Shown here piece after piece: positions 1 through 13,054 of a stretch of 13,525 nucleotides of DNA. Source of the stretch: Methanobacteriota archaeon (GTDB lineage Archaea > Halobacteriota > Bog-38 > Methanoflorentales > Methanoflorentaceae). The notes under the pieces are model-generated. The model ran no database searches, was not told where the DNA came from, and saw only the letters and a program-made list of their open reading frames with translations. A program made the translations under genes and the position numbers. The stretch is taken from the NCBI GenBank assembly GCA_963719035.1, contig CAVRAO010000009.1, forward strand, positions 1-13,525, given 5' to 3'. The stretch's first letter is position 1, and each line of letters opens with the position of its first letter.

Positions 1-679
1 GCAAAATATTTCGAGTCTTTTCTCTGCCTAAGTATATCGGTACAGTCCGAGCCCCTGCTTTTTGATCACCTTCTATATCCCGAACGTCGAGCAGGATGGT
101 GTTAATCAAAATCTTCAAAAAAATGAAATAAGCGACGAGTGCGATGATGAGGGGATTACCGACGTGGATGACGAGCGGCAATAGAATCGCTCCTGTAGTA
201 ATCGCGCCAGCGATCATGAGGTTCTTCATAAATAGTATGTTTTTCGTCCTCATTTTACGCACTCCGACGCTGTAAAAGGCGCCGGCGTAAAAAGGAAGGA
301 GAATTATGATGATCGCGTACGGATTGCTGAAGAAAGCTAAAACTATCGCGATATTAATTGATTCGATACTTACAAAAAGAAGAATATTGCCGTACTTTTT
401 TGACAATCGACTCCTGTCGGGCAGATTTATTGCATCTTCTTTAGCGTCTGTTACTTTGTTAAGACTATACACCGACACGCCTAGAAAAAACGTAGCAGCT
501 AGGAGCAGATAACTACTTGGCGTCCCTTGAAGCAGAAAAGAGACGTAAAGCACCGCTACTAACGCTACTGCCGTAAATACTGAACTGACCGTGATGAATG
601 AGGAAATGCGTTCGAACCGCGAGCGTGGTTGCGGCAAACGAAAAAGGAAAGCGAAGTCCTTTTCCGACGCTCCGTTCAA
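1..679 (-). CDS. UbiA-family prenyltransferase (3' end runs off the window)
   Basis: Not in the ORF track; translated by hand. TTG at 679 follows a GGGGGA SD-like run. Protein reads MNGASEKDFAFLF...GVSVYSLNKVTDAKEDAINLPDR...INTILLDVRDIEGDQKAGARTVPIYLG, with both UbiA aspartate-rich motifs and several hydrophobic helices. Frame is open to position 1. Confidence 0.88.
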   Translation of the reverse strand, partial: MNGASEKDFAFLFRLPQPRSRFERISSFITVSSVFTAVALVAVLYVSFLLQGTPSSYLLLAATFFLGVSVYSLNKVTDAKEDAINLPDRSRLSKKYGNILLFVSIESINIAIVLAFFSNPYAIIIILLPFYAGAFYSVGVRKMRTKNILFMKNLMIAGAITTGAILLPLVIHVGNPLIIALVAYFIFLKILINTILLDVRDIEGDQKAGARTVPIYLGREKTRNIL

Positions 680-756
680 TTCTTTATCCCCCTGCCATTA
701 CGTGCAGCTATTGATAAATTAAGTCAAATCTGGTAAGTTACATCAACGATGCAGCA

Positions 757-772
757 ACATATAAAGTTTGCT
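757..772 (-). promoter_or_regulatory. Candidate TATA box for the UbiA gene
   Basis: TTTATAT on the - strand at 765-759, about 80 nt upstream of the TTG, in an AT-rich intergenic region. Confidence 0.35.
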
Positions 773-897
773 ATGTTATTTTCGGATGTTATTGACATAC
801 TGAAATTGACTAGATATATAATTATTGACAGATTAACTCAATCTTTTTAACAATAACGAACAAAAGCCAAGTATGGGCAACTCCGATATCGCTTCAT

Positions 898-904
898 AAA
901 AAAA
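898..904 (-). terminator. Oligo-T (T7) archaeal-type terminator of the regulator gene
   Basis: A7 run on + (T7 on -) 22 nt past the stop codon at 927. Confidence 0.45.
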
Positions 905-926
905 GGGTCTCTAAACTTTCAAAATG

Positions 927-1748
927 TTAGAGATCAAAGATTTCTGCCTGTTCAACGTAATACTTGAACAGCTCTCTCCCCCAGTTAAGTGAATCTTCGC
1001 TGTAACTTATAAGCTCATTTGACCAGTCGTACGTCTTGTCTGGCCTGAAGAAACCAAGCTCTAAAAAGTAGTCAGTGACCGTAAATGCAACGGATGGCTG
1101 AGTTTCAATTGTATAGATCTTCAGATTTCCTTTAAGGGCTTCTTTAAGTTCAGTGCGCTCCGTGGTATTGAGGATCGCTTCTAAAACTTCAGGCGTGACG
1201 ACAAGTTTAATGTCAATGCCTTTGGCCACCAACTTAATGAAATTAGTCGGAAGATCTGGGATGAAAATAGGGGATACGCCGCGTACTTCTTTAGCGTTTT
1301 CGAGCAGCATAAAGAAGGTTGAGACGATCTTAAAAAGATCAGTGGGGGTACTGGATATAGTTATTGATTGCTCAAGGCTTCCGACCTTGTCGAGCAGGCC
1401 GACTGGAAGACCACTTAAATCATGCTCAAGCCAAAACTGCTTGTTTTTTGAAAGCGCGTTGATTGTGACGTTAGTCTCTTCCAACTTGCGCATGACGATC
1501 TCGCCAATGTTTGTAAGCAAGTAATTGCGTTTCTCGTCTTGATAAATCAAATCCTCTTTTGCCAGCTCTCTCAACGCGTGCACCGCCGCAGGCGAGCTGG
1601 CACCTACTTGTTCGCTCAGATGAGAGAGAGTTAGACTCTTACCCCCACGAAGTGCCTCAGCAAGGCTTTTCCGTAAATCAGAACAGGCTAACAGGTGGAG
1701 GATCCTATGAACGGCTTGATCTAGTTCGTTCGTTTCGGTATCGTTCAT
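927..1748 (-). CDS. Winged-helix transcriptional regulator, COG4742/FilR1-like (ArsR-like HTH + DUF1724-type domain)
   Basis: N-terminal wHTH (SDLRKSL...LTLSHLSEQVGASSPAAVHALREL...YLLTNIG), then FWLEHDLSGLP, RGVSPIF, FTVTDYFLELGFF and ISYSEDSLNWGRELFKYY, typical of the methanogen/haloarchaeal family; 273 aa. Confidence 0.88.
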   Translation of the reverse strand: MNDTETNELDQAVHRILHLLACSDLRKSLAEALRGGKSLTLSHLSEQVGASSPAAVHALRELAKEDLIYQDEKRNYLLTNIGEIVMRKLEETNVTINALSKNKQFWLEHDLSGLPVGLLDKVGSLEQSITISSTPTDLFKIVSTFFMLLENAKEVRGVSPIFIPDLPTNFIKLVAKGIDIKLVVTPEVLEAILNTTERTELKEALKGNLKIYTIETQPSVAFTVTDYFLELGFFRPDKTYDWSNELISYSEDSLNWGRELFKYYVEQAEIFDL

Positions 1749-1829: not shown

Positions 1830-1965
1830 CTTAATTTAGTTTTTGTTATTTTTATTAATTTCATTTAAATTTAATCTTTAACAATTATTTTATATATTAT
1901 GATAAAATCTAATTGTTAATAAAATTTAATAACTTTTAAATACTTTGACAATAATTAGATTCTAC
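1830..1965. promoter_or_regulatory. AT-rich divergent promoter region with a TATA box inside an imperfect palindrome
   Basis: Nearly pure A/T stretch between divergent genes; TTTATATA at ~1889-1896; TTAACAATTA (1878-1887) and TAATTGTTAA (1910-1919) are a perfect 10-bp inverted pair. Confidence 0.6.
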
Positions 1966-2136
1966 GCAACTCGAGAGAGGGGCTACGCAAACAGAAAAAA
2001 CTTAGCAACAAAAAATCCGAGCAACCCAAAGTGCAAGCTTCGTAATGCAGTAAAAAAACTGACCCTTCTCTCGTGAAGCGCAATTAAACAGGCACTTCGT
2101 AGCGAAATCCGTATTATAGACATCGAAGAGGTTTAA

Positions 2137-2949
2137 ATGGCGACACCCGGCCCTTCAAAAGTTATCGGCGTTACGTATCAAGACCCTAAAGGCAAAGATG
2201 CCGTTCTGCTTAATGCGCCGGATATCAAAGTCAAGCTTTTAGCTAATGCAGAACTCACCGGCTTCTTATTCAAAGACAAGAAAAACGGCGAAGAGACCTG
2301 TTTAAGTGGATTAAACATCACTGGAATCATCTACGAAGATGAAGACTCATCCGTAGAGAGTATTTTAACCGCCCGCAAGGTGCTCGGTATTATTTATCAA
2401 GAGGGTGCGTCTGTCAACCACACTATCTTAAACCGGTCTAAACTTCTGGGTGTTACATACCAAGACGCGGGCAGCTCTGATGTGAAACTGCTAGGCGGAC
2501 CGCAGCTAAACGCACGGATCCTCAACGGCTCGAGAATTACTGGCGTTCTCTATCAAGAGGCGGGAGGAGTAACCGCAACCTCCTTGCGCGAATCGGTGTT
2601 GACAGGCGTGATTTATAGAGAGCAAAACGCTGTTGACGAAGATATACTGACTAGTCTGAAGATCATTGGCATTATCTACCGAGATGTTAAACCCCCGATT
2701 CGCGCAACGCGTCGCGCACAAAAGGTTGAAGCGTCTAACGGAAACGGCTTTCTCAGGGTCGAACGTTTATTGTTATACCTCTTACCGATCATTGGCGTTC
2801 TTGGTCTCGTAGTGCCGTACGTATTGGAGCAGTTTCAGACCACCATTCTGATCTCATTTCTCGCTGTGCCGTTAATTGTCGTACCAGTGGCCTACTTGCT
2901 CTATCGTAAGTATTACGGCCGAGAGAGGTCGACCGTACACAGTTCTTAA
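2137..2949 (+). CDS. Uncharacterised 8-unit repeat protein with two C-terminal TM helices
   Basis: GAGGT SD upstream of the ATG. Eight units with core (K/R)-h-x-G-h-h-Y-x-(D/E) over aa 7-183, then two hydrophobic segments (LLLYLLPIIGVLGLVVPYVL; TILISFLAVPLIVVPVAYLLY) and a basic tail. Confidence 0.85.
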   Translation: MATPGPSKVIGVTYQDPKGKDAVLLNAPDIKVKLLANAELTGFLFKDKKNGEETCLSGLNITGIIYEDEDSSVESILTARKVLGIIYQEGASVNHTILNRSKLLGVTYQDAGSSDVKLLGGPQLNARILNGSRITGVLYQEAGGVTATSLRESVLTGVIYREQNAVDEDILTSLKIIGIIYRDVKPPIRATRRAQKVEASNGNGFLRVERLLLYLLPIIGVLGLVVPYVLEQFQTTILISFLAVPLIVVPVAYLLYRKYYGRERSTVHSS

Positions 2950-2959
2950 AGGTGTTATC

Positions 2960-3511
2960 ATGAAGAACTTAAGTGGAGCAAAGATTACGGGCATCATCTA
3001 CTTAGACGAAGCGACTGACGAAAAGAAGCTGTCTAGCAGGATGAGCATTAAAGTCAAACTCTTGACCAACTCGAAAGTGGTCGGCGTCCTGTATCGTAAA
3101 GAGAGTGCCGATGAGAGTATCTTAAGTGACTTACAGCTCGACGGGCTCACTTATTGGACGACGGGTGAGGATGATGACCGAATCCTCGAAGCGTCAAAAA
3201 TCACGGCCATACTGTACGGGGAGCCCACCGCTCTCGACAACCAAGCGCTTTGTGACCTGCGGATTAAGGGTCTTATTTATCAAGACGAGGGATCCGACAA
3301 GGCAAAGCTCTTGGCAGACTTCAGTCACACCGTGCACATCGTGCCGTGGCCACAGGTGACCGGTGTCCTCTGTCGACAAAACGGTTCTCTTAACAAGAAA
3401 ATCTTTGAAAGCGCACGCCTGAGCGGCTTTCTTTACCAGGACGAGGGTCATAAAGACGTAAATGTCGTAAGCGGGGTGAGGATATGCGGCGTTCTGTGCG
3501 AACAGACTTGA
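2960..3511 (+). CDS. Uncharacterised soluble 8-unit repeat protein, paralog of 2137..2949
   Basis: Start reassigned from 2876 to ATG 2960 (AAGGTG SD, 10 nt after the previous stop). 183 aa consisting only of eight units with the same core. Confidence 0.85.
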   Translation: MKNLSGAKITGIIYLDEATDEKKLSSRMSIKVKLLTNSKVVGVLYRKESADESILSDLQLDGLTYWTTGEDDDRILEASKITAILYGEPTALDNQALCDLRIKGLIYQDEGSDKAKLLADFSHTVHIVPWPQVTGVLCRQNGSLNKKIFESARLSGFLYQDEGHKDVNVVSGVRICGVLCEQT

Positions 3512-3629: not shown

Positions 3630-4880
3630 ATGACCGAGGCAGAAATGTTAATATGTACCTGCTGTGGCAAGCCGGTACGAATGAACCCGCTCAATGGCTA
3701 TACTTTATGTCCCTTTTGCATCGCAAAAAACGAACACACATGGGTGCCCACGAAACAACTGTGGAGGAGAGGTAGTAATATGAAAATTGCTGTTTTTGTC
3801 AATTCCCAAGCTGAAGCACATTTCTACAAGAACATTATAGCCGCGCTTGAGCGTGATGGCAATCAGGTCTTCGTGCTCGCGCGTGATTGTGATGGAACCA
3901 CGGAGCTGCTCAATGAACTCAACATTCCCTTTTTCCAGTTCTCAAGTCCGCTTGGCCCCGAATCTAGGAAAGTTACCTCACTTCCGCACGATGTCGTGAA
4001 TGCCTTTCGATATCTGAAGGAGAAAAACATCGACTTGACCACGGGCTGTGGCACCTATAGCACCTTCACCGCCTGCTTGCTCAAGGTTCCTGACATCGCC
4101 TTCAATGACTGCGAGAGCACCATTAGTCCTGAACGTTACGCTCTGTTCAAACTCACGTATCAGTTCACCGATGTTTTCGTGACGCCGTCATCATTCAAAC
4201 GAGAGTTGGGTTCAAAGCACTTCAAAGTTGAGAGTTACAAAGAGCTCGCGTACCTCCATCCCCATTACTACACACCTGACCCATCCGTTTTTGATCTGCT
4301 AGATGTTCCTAGGAGCCACGACTATAGTGTGCTAAGGTTCAACGCTTTTGAACGTCCACATGACCCCAGCGTCGGGGTACTGACTTATGCTGACAAAATC
4401 GCGCTTGTGAAAGAGCTTAGCGACTACGGAGAGGTCTTCGTTTCGTCCGAGTGCGATGTTCCAAGGGCGCTTCAAGAGCACGTGCTCGATGTGCCAAAGC
4501 ACAGAATTCACGACGTCTTAAGCTATGCATCGTTGTTTGTCACCGACACGCAGACTATGGCGGCAGAATCCGCGCTTCTCGGCACTCCGACAATTCGGAG
4601 TAGCCCAATAATGAGCGACTGTGACCCCGTCTTTATCGAACTTGAACGTGAATTTCAGTTACTGTTCAACTTAAAGACCCCCTCAGAAGTCGCCGCAAAG
4701 GCAGTCCAACTAATTGAGGATCCCCACGTAACGGAAGACTGGCTAAAGAAACGCGACCGATTATTAGAAAGAAAGCTCGATCTGACGGCGCTGATGGTTT
4801 CGCTTATCGAAGAGTTTCCCGCAAGCTTTGATTATATGAATGCTAACCGTGCTTTGCGGGGCATCCCGATATTTGAATAA
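3630..4880 (+). CDS. DUF354 family (predicted GT-B glycosyltransferase-like) protein; core start probably ATG 3780, preceded in frame by a 50-aa Zn ribbon
   Basis: From 3780: MKIAVFVNSQAEAHFYKNII, SYKELAYLHPHYYTPDPSV, SVLRF, HDVLSYASLFVTDTQTMAAESALLGTPTIR. SD-like runs precede both 3630 (GAGGGGG) and 3780 (GGAGGAGAGGT). Confidence 0.85.
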   Translation: MTEAEMLICTCCGKPVRMNPLNGYTLCPFCIAKNEHTWVPTKQLWRRGSNMKIAVFVNSQAEAHFYKNIIAALERDGNQVFVLARDCDGTTELLNELNIPFFQFSSPLGPESRKVTSLPHDVVNAFRYLKEKNIDLTTGCGTYSTFTACLLKVPDIAFNDCESTISPERYALFKLTYQFTDVFVTPSSFKRELGSKHFKVESYKELAYLHPHYYTPDPSVFDLLDVPRSHDYSVLRFNAFERPHDPSVGVLTYADKIALVKELSDYGEVFVSSECDVPRALQEHVLDVPKHRIHDVLSYASLFVTDTQTMAAESALLGTPTIRSSPIMSDCDPVFIELEREFQLLFNLKTPSEVAAKAVQLIEDPHVTEDWLKKRDRLLERKLDLTALMVSLIEEFPASFDYMNANRALRGIPIFE

Positions 4881-4934: not shown

Positions 4935-5669
4935 ATGGAGACCGTAGCGATCGTGATCCCGACGTTAAACGAGGCGCGTGCAATCAGCAAGGTTATTAAC
5001 CAAGTTCCGGTCGATGAACTTCAGGGTGCCGGGCTAGAACCTACCGTTTACGTAGTCGACGGGCATTCGACCGACAACACGATCGACATCGCGCGCAAAA
5101 TGGGTGCGCGAATCATCTTTGAAGAGGGCAGAGGCAAGGGCGCCGCCATTCGAACCGCTTTTCGACAGATCGAAGCCGACTACATCATCATGGTTGACGG
5201 CGACGATACGTACCCCATTGATGCGGCCCTGCGCATGGTTCGGCTCCTACAGACGCACGACGTCGTCGTCGGATCACGACTCAAAGGCAGGATTGAACAA
5301 GGGGCGATGACGCGGGTGAACATCGTGGGAAATACACTCCTCACGGTGCTCGCTCGGCTCCTCTTTCACGTAAAGATTAGCGACGTCTGCACTGGGTTAT
5401 GGGGCTTCCGACGCGACGCGATCCAGCGCCTGGAGCTCACCGCGCTAGGCTTCGAACTTGAGGCCGACCTGTTTGCCGAGAGTGTGCTCAATGGGTGCAG
5501 CATCGCAGAGATCCCGATCACCTATCGAACACGGCACGATCGCCCCAAGCTGGTTTCGCTGTCGGACGGGTTGAAGATAGGCGCATTTTTGATTAAGAAA
5601 TACCTGCACCAAACAAAAGGCCAGGCTGCAACATCTTGGGCGAAAAACGCCGAGGGGTTGCACAAATGA
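4935..5669 (+). CDS. Glycosyltransferase family 2, DPM1-like polyprenol-phosphate glycosyltransferase
   Basis: IVIPTLNEA, VVDGHSTDNT, GKGAAI, MVDGDDTY (DxD), DVVVGSR, SDVCTGLWGFRR, GFELEADL, EIPITYRTR. Confidence 0.92.
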   Translation: METVAIVIPTLNEARAISKVINQVPVDELQGAGLEPTVYVVDGHSTDNTIDIARKMGARIIFEEGRGKGAAIRTAFRQIEADYIIMVDGDDTYPIDAALRMVRLLQTHDVVVGSRLKGRIEQGAMTRVNIVGNTLLTVLARLLFHVKISDVCTGLWGFRRDAIQRLELTALGFELEADLFAESVLNGCSIAEIPITYRTRHDRPKLVSLSDGLKIGAFLIKKYLHQTKGQAATSWAKNAEGLHK

Positions 5670-6168: not shown

Positions 6169-7104
6169 ATGGAGGCACACAAGATATTGGTAACAGGCGG
6201 TGCCGGGTTCATCGGAACGAACCTAGTCACCGAACTGCGGAAGCGCGGTCACGAGGTGCTCGTGACCGATCAGTACAACACTGACCGAGAAGCCTACCTC
6301 AGAGCTGACGTGCGGAACTACCGACAAGTGCAGAAGCTCTGGGATGGCCAGGACTACGATTACGTATACCACCTCGCGGCCGAGTACGGACGATGGAACG
6401 GGGAAGATTACTATGAGAATCTGTGGGCCACGAACGTCATCGGGACGAAACACGTCCTGCGGATGCAAGAGAAAAAAGGCTTTCGGTTGATCTTCTTCTC
6501 GTCGGCAGAAGTGTACGGCGACTACGCTGGGGTGATGAGCGAAGACGTCATGAAAACACATCCCATCCAAGAGACGTACCAGATGAATGACTACGCTATA
6601 ACGAAGTGGGCTGGAGAACTGATGTGCATGAACTCATCGGCGATGTTCGGCACAGAAACCGTCCGCGTCAGGCCGGTCAATTGCTACGGGCCTCACGAGC
6701 ACTATACGCCGTACAGAGGATTCATTCCGAAGTTCATCTATCACGCACTGTTCGATAAACCGTATGAGGTGTACACGGGACACCGGAGAATCATCGACTA
6801 CGTTGAGGACTCGTGCAGGACGTTTGCCAATGTGTGCGACTTCTTCAAACCAGGTGAGGCCTATAACGTAGGCGGGCGGCCCGGCTGGGAAAAGGAAATC
6901 AAAGAGTACTCCGACCTGGTGCTCAACGCGGTCGGCAAAGATGACTCATTGGTTACCTACAAGGAGGCGGAACCGTTCACGACGAAGGTCAAGCGCATGG
7001 ATTTTTCGAAGGCGGTATCCGACTTGAACCATGACCCTAAAGTGTCACCCGAAGAAGGCATTAAACGGACCGTCAGCTGGATGCGCTCCTATTATCGGAG
7101 GTGA
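6169..7104 (+). CDS. NAD-dependent nucleotide-sugar epimerase/dehydratase (extended SDR)
   Basis: ILVTGGAGFIG, VYHLAA, FFSSAEVYG, YAITK (YxxxK), RPVNCYGP. Confidence 0.93.
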   Translation: MEAHKILVTGGAGFIGTNLVTELRKRGHEVLVTDQYNTDREAYLRADVRNYRQVQKLWDGQDYDYVYHLAAEYGRWNGEDYYENLWATNVIGTKHVLRMQEKKGFRLIFFSSAEVYGDYAGVMSEDVMKTHPIQETYQMNDYAITKWAGELMCMNSSAMFGTETVRVRPVNCYGPHEHYTPYRGFIPKFIYHALFDKPYEVYTGHRRIIDYVEDSCRTFANVCDFFKPGEAYNVGGRPGWEKEIKEYSDLVLNAVGKDDSLVTYKEAEPFTTKVKRMDFSKAVSDLNHDPKVSPEEGIKRTVSWMRSYYRR

Positions 7105-7108
7105 TTGA

Positions 7109-8108
7109 ATGGACGATGTATATGGTGACTACGAGGGAAAAACCGTGCTAGTGACGGGCGGAGCGGGAGCGATCGGTGGCAACCTCGTCCGCAGACTGGA
7201 CGAACTCAACACAAAGAAGATTGCCATCCTCGACAACCTCTCCTCATCGTACCGACTGGAACGTTCCTGTCGGCCCGAAGATACAGTTCGTTCGTGGTGA
7301 TATCCTCGACGACGAGAAGCTGAAGTTTGTGTTTAAGGATAAACCCGACATCATATTCCACTTAGCCGCGCACTTTGCCAATCAAAACTCGATCGATAAT
7401 CCCGAAACAGACCTCATGGTGAACGGCATGGGAATCCTCAAGGTGCTCGGATATGCCCACCTTACCGGCGTTTCCCGATTCGTGTATGCCTCGTCAGGGT
7501 GTGGGGTCTATGGATTAGATTCGACCATACCGTATACCGAACCTGACGTGTCGATAAGCCTTCACAGCCCATATCAAGTCACAAAGCTCCTTGGGGAACT
7601 ATATACGAACTACTATCATAATCTGTACGGGCTTCCCATCGTTAACACGCGGTTTTTTAACAGTTACGGTCCAGGCGAAGTGCCCGGTAAATATCGCAAC
7701 GTCATACCTAACTTCTTTTACTGGGCGATGATGAGTAAAGCTTTGCCGATTACCGGAGACGGCACCGAAACGAGAGACTGGACGTACGTCGGCGATCTTA
7801 TAAATGGCCTTTTGGCGGCCGGAGTGAAAGATGAAGCGATCGGTGAGGCAATCAACCTCGGCTCGGGCACAGAAACGCACGTCATCGACATGGCGCACGA
7901 GGTCAATCGGCTTGCGGGCAACAAGCTCGGGGTGATGTACATTCAGAGACGGGATTGGGACGCAAAAACGCGACTCATCTCATCGATTGACAAGGCAGAA
8001 AAACTGCTCGGCTATCGACCACGAACGACATTCAACAAAGGACTGAAGCACGTTCACGAGTGGTTTGTTGACAACTGGGAGAACATTCAGAGGAGCGCCG
8101 AATTCTAA
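7109..8108 (+). CDS. NAD-dependent epimerase/dehydratase (extended SDR), split by one apparent +1 frameshift at ~7253
   Basis: 7109 frame has VLVTGGAGAIG...ILDNLSSSY; the next frame has DWNVP...FHLAA, YASSGCGVYG, YQVTK, RFFNSYGPG, GDGTETRDWTYV. Removing one C from gtaCCgac joins them into one ~332-aa protein. Confidence 0.88.
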
Positions 8109-8287: not shown

Positions 8288-8596
8288 ATGGAAGATAAGA
8301 ACGAACGAGCGGAGCCTATCTTAAAAGAGACGCTGGCTTACATCGAGACATTAGACGAGGGCATAAAGCCGTTTGCACATAGCAGCATTTGGTGGTCAAT
8401 ACTGTTATCATCTGGCAATATTGTAGCGTCCGTGCAATATTGCCCTAAGGTTTTTATATTGGGGCGTGGTAGTAAAAACGTTGAACCAACTGCCCGCGAG
8501 ATGCCACAATTCAGGGGCTTTTTTGAGCATCTCACGTTTGACATCGGGAGGTCGCAGCTCGACAGGAGCGAACGCTACAATCGCGGTGTGACATGA
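8288..8596 (+). CDS. Hypothetical protein (102 aa)
   Basis: GAGGT upstream of the ATG and an ATGA overlap with the next gene; no recognisable motif. Confidence 0.4.
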   Translation: MEDKNERAEPILKETLAYIETLDEGIKPFAHSSIWWSILLSSGNIVASVQYCPKVFILGRGSKNVEPTAREMPQFRGFFEHLTFDIGRSQLDRSERYNRGVT

Positions 8597-9942
8597 AAAT
8601 CTTAATGGTTCACGACAACGGGTGGACTAACAAGGGCCCGCACCAACACCACCACTTATTGGAGAAACTATCTCTCAAAGGCCATCAAGTGGTTGTCGTT
8701 GAATACGACCACCTGTGGCGCATGAAAAACGGATCAACGAGAGCTCCACGCATAGCTAGAGAAAGCGTGCGAACAGGTGTTCAACGATTCTACGACAGCG
8801 CTGACGTCACTTGTATAAGCCCTCCATTCATACGATTGCCTCTTTTGGATTACCTCTCGCTGGCTGCGACGTTTCGGCGGCAAATAAAGCAGGAAATACA
8901 ACGTTTTCGGCCCGATGTGATAGTTGGGTTTACAGGCGTCATTAGCCCCTTCTGGGGGGCCGTTTTAGCAGAAGAGATGCACATACCCTATGTAGACTAT
9001 TGGCTTGACGCAACAGATCAGCTCGTGCCTGAGGCGTTTTTGAGACCACTAGCGAGAATGATTCAACGCACGACGCTTAGCAAAGCGACTTTGGTATTGA
9101 CCATTAACAACACCCTCAGAGAGTACGTCATCGAGCTCGGAGCTAATCCTTCAAAAACACAGGTTTTGCCTGGAGGGGTAGACCTCAGAAAGTTCGACCC
9201 AGCGTCAACAGACTCTCAACGGATGCGTGATAAGTACAGGTCTGGGGAAAGATGATCTTGTGCTGTTGTTTATGGGTTGGATCTATGACTTCTCGGGATT
9301 ACAGGAAGCCGTGCTCGAACTGGCCCGCTATCGAGAATTGCGTCCCGACCTTAAGCTGCTGATAGTGGGTGAAGGAGATTTCTATCCAACGCTGAAGGAA
9401 ATCGTGCGGGAGAACCACGTGCAAGAGAGCGTAATTTTCACTGGAAAGGTTCCCTATACGGAGATACCCGAGTTGTTAGCAGCAGCCGACATCGCTCTGC
9501 TTCCCGCTCACGACAATGAAATTATGCGAAATGCCGTTCCGATAAAGATCTACGAGTACTCGCTATGCACAAGCCTACGATATGCACCAAGCTTTCCGGA
9601 ATCATGCGGGAATTTGGCAGTGATTGCGGTATTCTGTACATCGAAAAACCAGAAGAAGCTGTAGAAGTGGCGGCGAACTTACGTGACGAAGACGTGCAAC
9701 GCCTTAAAATGCAAGCCAAGCAGTTCATTGAGAATTATGATTGGGACAAACTCGCCGCTCGATTCGAAGCAACGCTGACCTCCTTAGTTGAAAACAGCCA
9801 CCAAGCAGCAACGTACTCCACAAGGCATTCAAAAAGACTTTTTCGGCCGAATAGGGAACTCCACGAGAGGAACGTGAGGTTTCTTACGGCACTTAACGCG
9901 CGACCCAGCAGCTACATCCGCCGGCCTATATGTCCTCCCTGA
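8593..9942 (+). CDS. Glycosyltransferase family 4 (GT-B), split by two apparent frameshifts (~9238, +1; ~9559, -1)
   Basis: Three consecutive ORFs join up: MKILMV...GGVDLRKFDP...RDKY | GLGKDDLVLLFMGWIYDFSG...LLIVGEG...FTGKVPYTEIPELLAAADI...PIKIYEY | LAMHKPTICTKL...YDWDKLAARFE. Confidence 0.88.
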
Positions 9943-10164: not shown

Positions 10165-10285
10165 TCTGCACGAAACTCATATGTAGAAATACCCGCCTAT
10201 AACACCTGAGAACTAAAATGACGAAAACGGTCCATAACGTGCTTTTTATAGCATCTAGGTTTCCGCCGTTAGCCGGACCGGGAGC
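10165..10285 (+). repeat. Direct repeat copy A (121 bp): leader plus 5' end of a GT4 gene
   Basis: Matches 12933-13054 with 4 substitutions and 1 indel by manual alignment. Confidence 0.95.
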
Positions 10286-10298: not shown

Positions 10299-10663
10299 AC
10301 ACCTCGGGGAGCACGAAACAGCCAAAGAAGATAGTTTTCTTTGGGCACTTCGGGGTGGTCAACTTCGGCAACGAGAGCAGCCTGAAAGCAGTGCTTTGTC
10401 ATCTTCGCCGTATGGTGCCGAATGCCGAATTCAACTGCATCTGCACCGATCCGAGCACCGTCGCGATGACCTATGACATCGCCGCAGTGTCCAGCAGGAC
10501 TCCCGTGGGTGAATACCGGACGCTGCACAGCCCGTTGGCTCGACTGGCGCTAAGACTCGTGGACGATCTCTACGAGCCTTGGCGGTGGGTCAGCCACAGT
10601 TCATTGAGCCTTTACACGACGAAGGTCGAGCGTTCGAATCGCCTCGAGCCCATAGTTTTTTGA
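10295..10663 (+). pseudogene. Polysaccharide pyruvyl transferase (WcaK/CsaB-like), N-terminal fragment only
   Basis: KKIVFFGHFGVVNFGNESSLKAVL...FNCICTDP resembles the GxxGxxNxG(D/N)E start of the family. Similarity appears to end near 10592, after which the frame reads through the tRNA-derived repeat to a stop. Confidence 0.7.
10606..10653 (+). repeat. tRNA-Val(TAC) 3'-half fragment, copy 1 (att-like site; not a full tRNA)
   Basis: TTTACAC anticodon loop, GACGA stem strand, AGGTC variable loop, GAGCG-TTCGAAT-CGCCT T arm, CGAGCCC-A acceptor strand, then a T-run. No D arm or 5' acceptor strand upstream. Confidence 0.85.
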
Positions 10664-10912: not shown

Positions 10913-10944
10913 CCTTTATGCAATTGTATATATTAAAATGTATT

Positions 10945-11484
10945 ATGACTGCAAAAGGCCCGCACCTGACGAGCGAAAAACTAACGATTAAAGAAGCCGC
11001 AGCGGCGCTAGGCGTGCATCCTGCCACCATCCGACGCAAGATTAAGGATAATACTATTAAGTGGGAGAAAGACGACGGCACGCGTGGGCAATACTACATA
11101 CCCGCAAGCGAGATTGATACCTACTGGGCAACTAGGTCAGTCGTTAAGCGTGCGCGTGAGATAGACGTTACGGAGATAACGAACGAAATTAGTGAGCAGC
11201 GCAATGCGGTCATAAAATTGTTTGAGCGTGTAAGCGAGATGCGTATGATCGAGATAGCGACCGCCGAAAACGTTCGAGATATGCGGGCATCTCTCGAAAA
11301 GTTAACCGCGAAAATAGACGAACTAGATTTAAAATTAACGCCACTAGACGAAGGCGCTACGAGTGAGGGGACTCCATTTTCCGAATCGGAAGCGAGATAT
11401 ACAAACCTAAAAGAATGGATCGCGTCTGCTAAAGCAAAATCTCGGGAATACTGGTGGCAGTTCTGGCGTTATGAAAAGTCTTAA
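10945..11484 (+). CDS. HTH_17/MerR-like (excisionase-type) DNA-binding protein with coiled coil and aromatic-basic C-terminal tail
   Basis: LTIKEAAAALGVHPATIRRKIKDNTI...GQYYIPASEI; heptad-like VRDMRASLEKLTAKIDELDLKL; ends YWWQFWRYEKS. Start at 10945 preferred over 10918 but uncertain. Confidence 0.85.
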   Translation: MTAKGPHLTSEKLTIKEAAAALGVHPATIRRKIKDNTIKWEKDDGTRGQYYIPASEIDTYWATRSVVKRAREIDVTEITNEISEQRNAVIKLFERVSEMRMIEIATAENVRDMRASLEKLTAKIDELDLKLTPLDEGATSEGTPFSESEARYTNLKEWIASAKAKSREYWWQFWRYEKS

Positions 11485-11779: not shown

Positions 11780-11826
11780 GAGCCTTACACGACGAAGGTC
11801 GGGCGTTCGAATCGCCTCGAGCCCAT
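11780..11826 (+). repeat. tRNA-Val(TAC) 3'-half fragment, copy 2 (att-like site)
   Basis: Direct repeat of 10606-10653 with one T missing and one A>G change (better-paired T stem GGGCG/CGCCT), followed by T-runs. Confidence 0.85.
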
Positions 11827-12932: not shown

Positions 12933-13054
12933 TCTGCACGAAACTCATATGTAGAAATACCCGCCTATAACACCCGAGTACTTAAAATGACGAAAACGGT
13001 CCATAACGTGCTTTTTATAGCATCTAGGTTTCCGCCGCAAGCCGGACCGGGAGC
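12933..13054 (+). repeat. Direct repeat copy B (122 bp)
   Basis: Partner of 10165-10285; contains the start of the intact GT4 gene. Confidence 0.95.

Follow-up and report, generated by a model that had tools for sequence, protein, structure and literature searches.

The window analysed here, a stretch of 13,525 nucleotides that forms the whole of contig C9 in a 2.19 Mb archaeal genome carrying mcrA, harbors two adjacent genes, designated A and B, that encode a membrane-anchored and a soluble protein, each built of eight short repeat units. No known family, solved structure or paper was found to cover these repeat proteins, and close relatives of both are labelled 'Halobacteriota archaeon'; the genus is presumably that of the Bog-38/Ca. 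Methanoflorens group. What is new is the family and its predicted fold, whereas no mechanism is proven; the family is limited to one genus and its function is inferred from context. A and B are tentatively read, with a probability somewhat short of even, as subunits of a cytoplasmic, membrane-tethered, beta-rich and non-enzymatic scaffold that serves surface-glycan synthesis. Their history can be read in several steps: a repeat unit, doubled four-unit halves, four paralogues (A, B and two further genes called C and D) and an anchor derived from a gene of which a decayed remnant still follows one paralogue. The family thus offers a concrete case for testing the birth of a fold by repeat amplification and the gain of function by capture. 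Were the scaffold model correct, archaeal glycosylation would gain a cytoplasmic organiser, a component of which no example was found in the literature.

Repeat architecture, coding status and distribution

All 16 ten-residue cores quoted in the initial annotation, an earlier description made from the letters of the window and its open reading frames (ORFs), were found exactly, eight in each protein with the first at residue 7. Cores start at residues 7, 38, 59, 80, 101, 132, 153 and 174 of A (spacing 31, 21, 21, 21, 31, 21, 21) and at residues 7, 38, 58, 79, 100, 131, 152 and 173 of B (A-like spacing with one of 20), therefore each protein consists of two copies of a four-unit half. The strict core pattern occurs seven times per protein, against a maximum of two in 100,000 shuffles of each; among 4,559 stop-to-stop frames of at least 100 aa in the genome, six contain seven or eight cores, all of them family members, and the next best frame contains three. 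The unit consensus, drawn from 352 distinct units, is [L/I]-[L/V]-[S/N]-G-S-[K/R]-[I/V/L]-T-G-h-h-Y-x-[E/D]. Invariant columns of the family alignments are mostly glycine, tyrosine and aliphatic, and no invariant polar cluster suggestive of catalysis was seen in them. A and B share 29% identity over 174 residues and are separated by a 10-base gap (A stop at 2949, B start at 2960) that contains AGGTG. The transmembrane (TM) pair that had been assigned to the C-terminus of A alone is borne out by Kyte-Doolittle maxima of 2.65 in A and 0.6 in B (19-residue window) and by AlphaFold, which predicts helices at residues 208–232 and 236–260 of A. Neither N-terminus is hydrophobic, in agreement with the reported absence of signal peptides, and basic residues lie at both ends of the A hairpin.

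The ratio of nonsynonymous to synonymous substitution rates (dN/dS) is 0.11–0.22 for the A repeats and 0.17–0.28 for B in five of five pairwise comparisons each, close to the value for the DUF354-like gene downstream (0.15), and since it stays within 0.11–0.29 in all 18 comparisons over the A repeats, B, C and D, these are real proteins. The same values argue against a non-functional expansion or an assembly artefact, an explanation that is extremely unlikely and already largely refuted, as do the intact family genes in 11 genomes and the units themselves, which diverge widely from one another within a protein yet are conserved between orthologues. The artefact explanation can point to duplicate contigs in the assembly (C4 is 98% identical to part of C2, and C5 99% to part of C12), to frameshifted genes and to near-exact internal duplications within C. 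The assembly probably holds strain variants: C9 is an 80–85% mosaic relative of two C2 regions (85% identity over 4 kb of C2), and because C4 and C5 duplicate other contigs at 98–99%, C9 may stem from a co-binned relative rather than represent a true second locus.

A second A–B copy is located on C2 of the same genome (86% identical for A and 96% for B), and about 7 kb from it lies the C–D pair, in which the soluble C (206 aa) is followed by D (293 aa), composed of four units, a linker, four units and a TM hairpin. A and D can be aligned from end to end (hhalign 99.9%). In all 12 loci, drawn from 11 genomes, A immediately precedes B (with A interrupted in G001), and D follows C in 51 of 61 metagenome loci, many of them near-copies of one another; eight others end at a contig edge and two are a six-unit variant. 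Thus a soluble-plus-anchored pairing occurs twice, with the gene order reversed. Homologues occurring singly had been named beforehand as grounds for abandoning the proposed system, and intact homologues were never found as single genes. The six-unit form of C (about 155 aa, without one near-identical 51-aa block) was seen at L044:5176–5637 and in L115, L116, L117, L122, L123, L125 and L131, and reflects either a genuine variant or collapse during assembly.

A profile search of 401 genomes of the phylum detected the family in the source genome and in 11 of 17 others of the genus, with matches in 0/6 sister-genus genomes and none in the other 377. A search of 1.84 billion representatives gave nothing further outside the family except matches to the hairpin. 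One of these 11 genomes, G010 (one contig, 90% complete), retains an 87-aa fragment of A only, without a match for the B, C, D or DUF354-like query.

Membrane anchor and glycan context

Residues 204–265 of A match the two N-terminal helices of an archaeal multipass family of about 630 aa (hhalign probability 97.3, E 2.3e-11). The five proteins in this comparison had been chosen by their likeness to A, hence a genome-wide control was included: the full 630-aa profile, run over 13,224 genome frames at E ≤ 1e-3, recovered only the two A copies, at the profile N-terminus, and two longer relatives, whose match begins near position 90. Relatives of the 630-aa family without a matching N-terminal hairpin (C2:756924–758381 and C4:2668–3654 of the source genome) are candidate partners for A or D; their neighbors are presumably DUF1616-like, MoxR-like and flippase-like, names that we assigned from sequence. 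The D hairpin matches the same two helices more weakly (hhalign 31%, E 5e-4), and a decayed continuation of the 630-aa gene (profile positions 96–136, E 5e-8 to 6e-3) lies in a broken frame beyond the D stop in 3 of the 11 D-containing genomes and in 7 of 61 metagenome loci. In the simplest reading, the repeats would have been joined to the 5' end of a 630-aa-type gene that was later cut after the hairpin. The known members of the 630-aa family carry no repeats and, conversely, A and D retain only the hairpin, the whole catalytic body being gone; with two TM helices A also differs from GT-C membrane glycosyltransferases, which have 8–13 and a catalytic external loop. The 630-aa family is itself probably GT-C-type, one member showing a weak PMT_2 match (E 0.0022); PDB and NCBIfam gave no match for it, and it has no curated name and no Pfam family. 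In G041 its hairpin is a separate 114-aa ORF (L021 1447–1791) ending 3 bases before the body ORF (1–1443, minus strand), which suggests that the hairpin can work as an independent polypeptide.

Another attachment is seen in G003, which encodes four helices of DUF1616 (PF07760; protein P0051, E 1.2e-28), a part that the window proteins lack, followed in frame by a C-like repeat domain. The contig also encodes DUF354-like, UDP-GlcNAc 2-epimerase, UDP-glucose dehydrogenase, DegT and 630-aa family proteins. A DUF1616 protein is reported as a glycosylated membrane protein of Haloferax (PMC8241124), and no function of DUF1616 was found in the literature searched. In the A hairpin and the DUF1616 fusion alike, basic residues adjoin the repeats on the side expected to be cytoplasmic. 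An anchor captured from a GT-C-like protein, together with the fusion to DUF1616, makes the link of A and B to the glycan machinery stronger than the initial annotation could show.

The next long same-strand gene after A–B is glycosyltransferase-like in 12/12 loci (DUF354-like in 9 and GT2 in 3), and divergent FilR1-type (COG4742-like) and UbiA genes lie upstream in most, as the proposed neighborhood check had anticipated. The downstream GT2, epimerase and GT4 genes are present; the match to DUF354 (E 5.7e-4) scored 19.5 bits, under the Pfam cut-off of 22, beside a Glyco_transf_4 match (E 0.0056). The claimed link to glycan loci holds for A–B, within one genus, and less so for C–D, which adjoins the A–B–DUF354 cassette in several genomes and precedes GT4 genes in G003 and G007 but often has ThiF, purA or FprA as neighbors instead of glycan genes. 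Of 24 genomes of the taxonomic family, several incomplete and all kin, 9 have both intact repeats and the DUF354-like gene, 2 only the repeats, 1 only the DUF354-like gene and 12 neither. The AT-rich block upstream of A shares 79% identity over 92 bases with the sequence preceding an epimerase pair on C2 (745310–745400, E 5e-11) and is kept in 4 of 6 aligned A loci, which suggests shared control of A–B and the C2 epimerase operon; its role as a promoter, with TTTAAATA, is assumed from the archaeal TATA consensus.

Predicted fold and possible roles

As had been proposed, the repeat domain is predicted to be all-beta, with model strands of 5 and 8–14 residues in a 31/21/21/21 rhythm, and a full-length match to a known family was not found. 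Hits to GerQ/CgeA spore-coat, Hcp and phage tail-tube proteins show partial coverage, root-mean-square deviations up to 7.5 and 4–12% identity, not above background. We take bactofilin and pertactin beta-helices, MORN and choline-binding repeats to be similar in kind (beta repeats of about 20 aa with a conserved glycine, often membrane- or envelope-associated). None of them appears among the folds listed by the structural searches, nor does a right-handed beta-solenoid; polymer-forming cytoskeletal or pertactin Pfam matches are absent at E ≤ 1 in 48 members, and MORN or choline-binding profiles gave no match in Pfam searches of window and family proteins.

In the proposed scaffold, the repeat domain would face the cytoplasm and be held at the membrane by the A hairpin, which may dock on glycan-handling membrane proteins via a surface inherited from its parent; the cytoplasmic, tethered location given in the initial annotation is probable, with the tether running through A. 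Soluble B, and likewise C with D, could associate through edge strands left exposed, in the manner of small beta-barrel proteins, and the assembly, an accessory rather than an enzyme, might bring the soluble enzymes (DUF354-like, GT2 and GT4) together at the lipid carrier. This reading is favored because of the operon-like unit that A–B form with glycosyltransferase-like genes, the twofold soluble and anchored pairing, the captured hairpin, the DUF1616 fusion, the shared 92-base block, the basic flanks without a signal peptide, the lack of B, C, D and DUF354-like matches in G010 and the lack of a catalytic polar cluster. Several points weigh against it. AlphaFold confidence (pLDDT) for B is about 80 in only 2/5 models, the GT-C assignment combines one sub-threshold Pfam match with a sequence motif, and an in-frame DUF1616 fusion is seen in one genome, a stop separating the parts in 2/2 metagenome loci. 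C–D usually lies between ThiF or unknown genes and purA or FprA; repeats occur without the DUF354-like gene in G007 (60% complete) and G009 (78%), and the reverse holds in G005 (78%). Five further genomes of the genus, one of them 90% complete, have no match of either kind, thus the family looks dispensable, and since relatives are confined to one genus the synteny amounts to one inheritance and not to independent evidence.

A self-assembling structural polymer (ring, tube or membrane-lining filament) with its own role in envelope or shape is a somewhat doubtful alternative, for which the surface-glycan region would be a collector of envelope genes. It is unlikely that the repeats bind nucleotide sugars or lipid-linked oligosaccharide multivalently and so pass substrate on to the transferases or limit chain length: the gene context is no different from that of the scaffold reading, and each unit tends to carry a tyrosine (75%) with Asp/Glu two residues later (63%), a pairing common in sugar-binding sites, but no lectin fold scored in the structural searches, and a place for the tyrosine in the protein core is suggested by its position within predicted strands, next to buried aliphatics, and by the Phe or Cys found instead of it in several units. 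A membrane-tethered regulator, either an Sm/Hfq-derived RNA binder or a sensor signalling to the divergent FilR1-type winged-helix proteins, appears quite unlikely, even though these genes lie upstream in most loci and about 195 bases separate the TATA-like box from the A start. The family phrog_6750, of whose translated archaeal matches 20/21 are Sm proteins, ranks top in PHROG for 12/13 C members (best E 4.3e-7, summed over repeats) and 18/48 A/B members (best E 0.0076), and Sm/Hfq/WYL-like barrels make up about 20 of the top 50 rows of the structural search with the B model. On the other hand, the PHROG threshold is not reached by any one stretch, hhalign detects no signal with an archaeal Sm profile (P 0.27–0.63 for 6/6 alignments), the units score within shuffle range against such a profile, PF01423 (LSM) is not matched by window or family proteins, and the D-x-H-x-N (Sm1) and RG (Sm2) motifs of the Sm alignment are absent from the unit columns and family alignments. 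Additionally, B is slightly acidic (22 K+R, 26 D+E), and unlike the single 65-aa Sm barrel the window proteins have eight tandem hairpin units in 180 aa, a TM anchor and a glycan-locus context. A rather doubtful synthesis would see a young, genus-specific fold that arose by eightfold amplification of an Sm-type beta-hairpin, was joined on two occasions to parts of membrane proteins from glycan loci (the GT-C-like hairpin and the DUF1616 helices) and now forms, with four paralogues, a membrane-tethered heteromeric ring or filament organising surface-glycan synthesis from the cytoplasm.

Neighboring features and minor observations

Table 1. Coordinates of the A–B pair and surrounding features in the window
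Feature	Position	Strand	Remarks
UbiA-family prenyltransferase	2..679	-	PF01040 E 1.2e-17; cut by contig end
FilR1-middle/winged-helix regulator gene	927..1748	-	PF08350 E 2.7e-29; divergent
AT-rich promoter-like block	1867..1957	+	upstream of A; TTTAAATA at 1935-1942
GAGGT	2128-2132	+	before gene A
Gene A	2137..2949	+	270 aa; eight-unit beta-repeat domain, basic low-confidence linker, C-terminal TM hairpin
A repeat domain	2155..2685	+	residues 7-183; two four-unit halves
A TM hairpin	2758..2916	+	residues 208-260; homologous to TM1-TM2 of the ~630-aa membrane protein family (probable GT-C-type)
Gene B	2960..3511	+	183 aa; soluble eight-unit beta-repeat protein
DUF354-like glycosyltransferase-fold gene	3780..4880	+	directly downstream of B; upstream ATG 3630 possible
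GT2 glycosyltransferase	4935..5669	+	PF00535 E 1.6e-23
Two NAD-dependent epimerase/dehydratase genes	6169..8108	+	second in two frames (7109-7300, 7176-8108)
GT4 glycosyltransferase	8593..9942	+	pieces in more than one frame

The broken second epimerase (7109–8108), whose homologue on C2 (743186–744184) is whole, and the broken GT4 gene reflect either sequencing error or decay. A short CxxC...CxxC zinc-ribbon-like stretch precedes the DUF354-like start (3630–3780) and has a match at C12:147821–147960; a similar small ORF lies upstream of A in G009 (L005:8880–9167). In one sub-lineage, an acidic protein of about 240–280 aa, with no Pfam match at E ≤ 0.001, is encoded between A and the FilR1-type gene (L038:13265–14095 and relatives).

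The 3' half of tRNA-Val(TAC), whose full gene is at C11:66674–66747, is present in two direct copies (10606–10653 and 11780–11826) on either side of an HTH_17 excisionase-like gene (10918–11484), and further copies are found at C2:710476–710523 and C11:72553–72609; these sequences resemble scars left at attachment sites by integrative elements, here at the border of the glycan locus. An inverted duplication of 122 bases (10165–10285 and 12933–13054, with 96% identity) overlies the start of the unassigned ORF at 12987, and one of its copies appears to be a truncated gene start.
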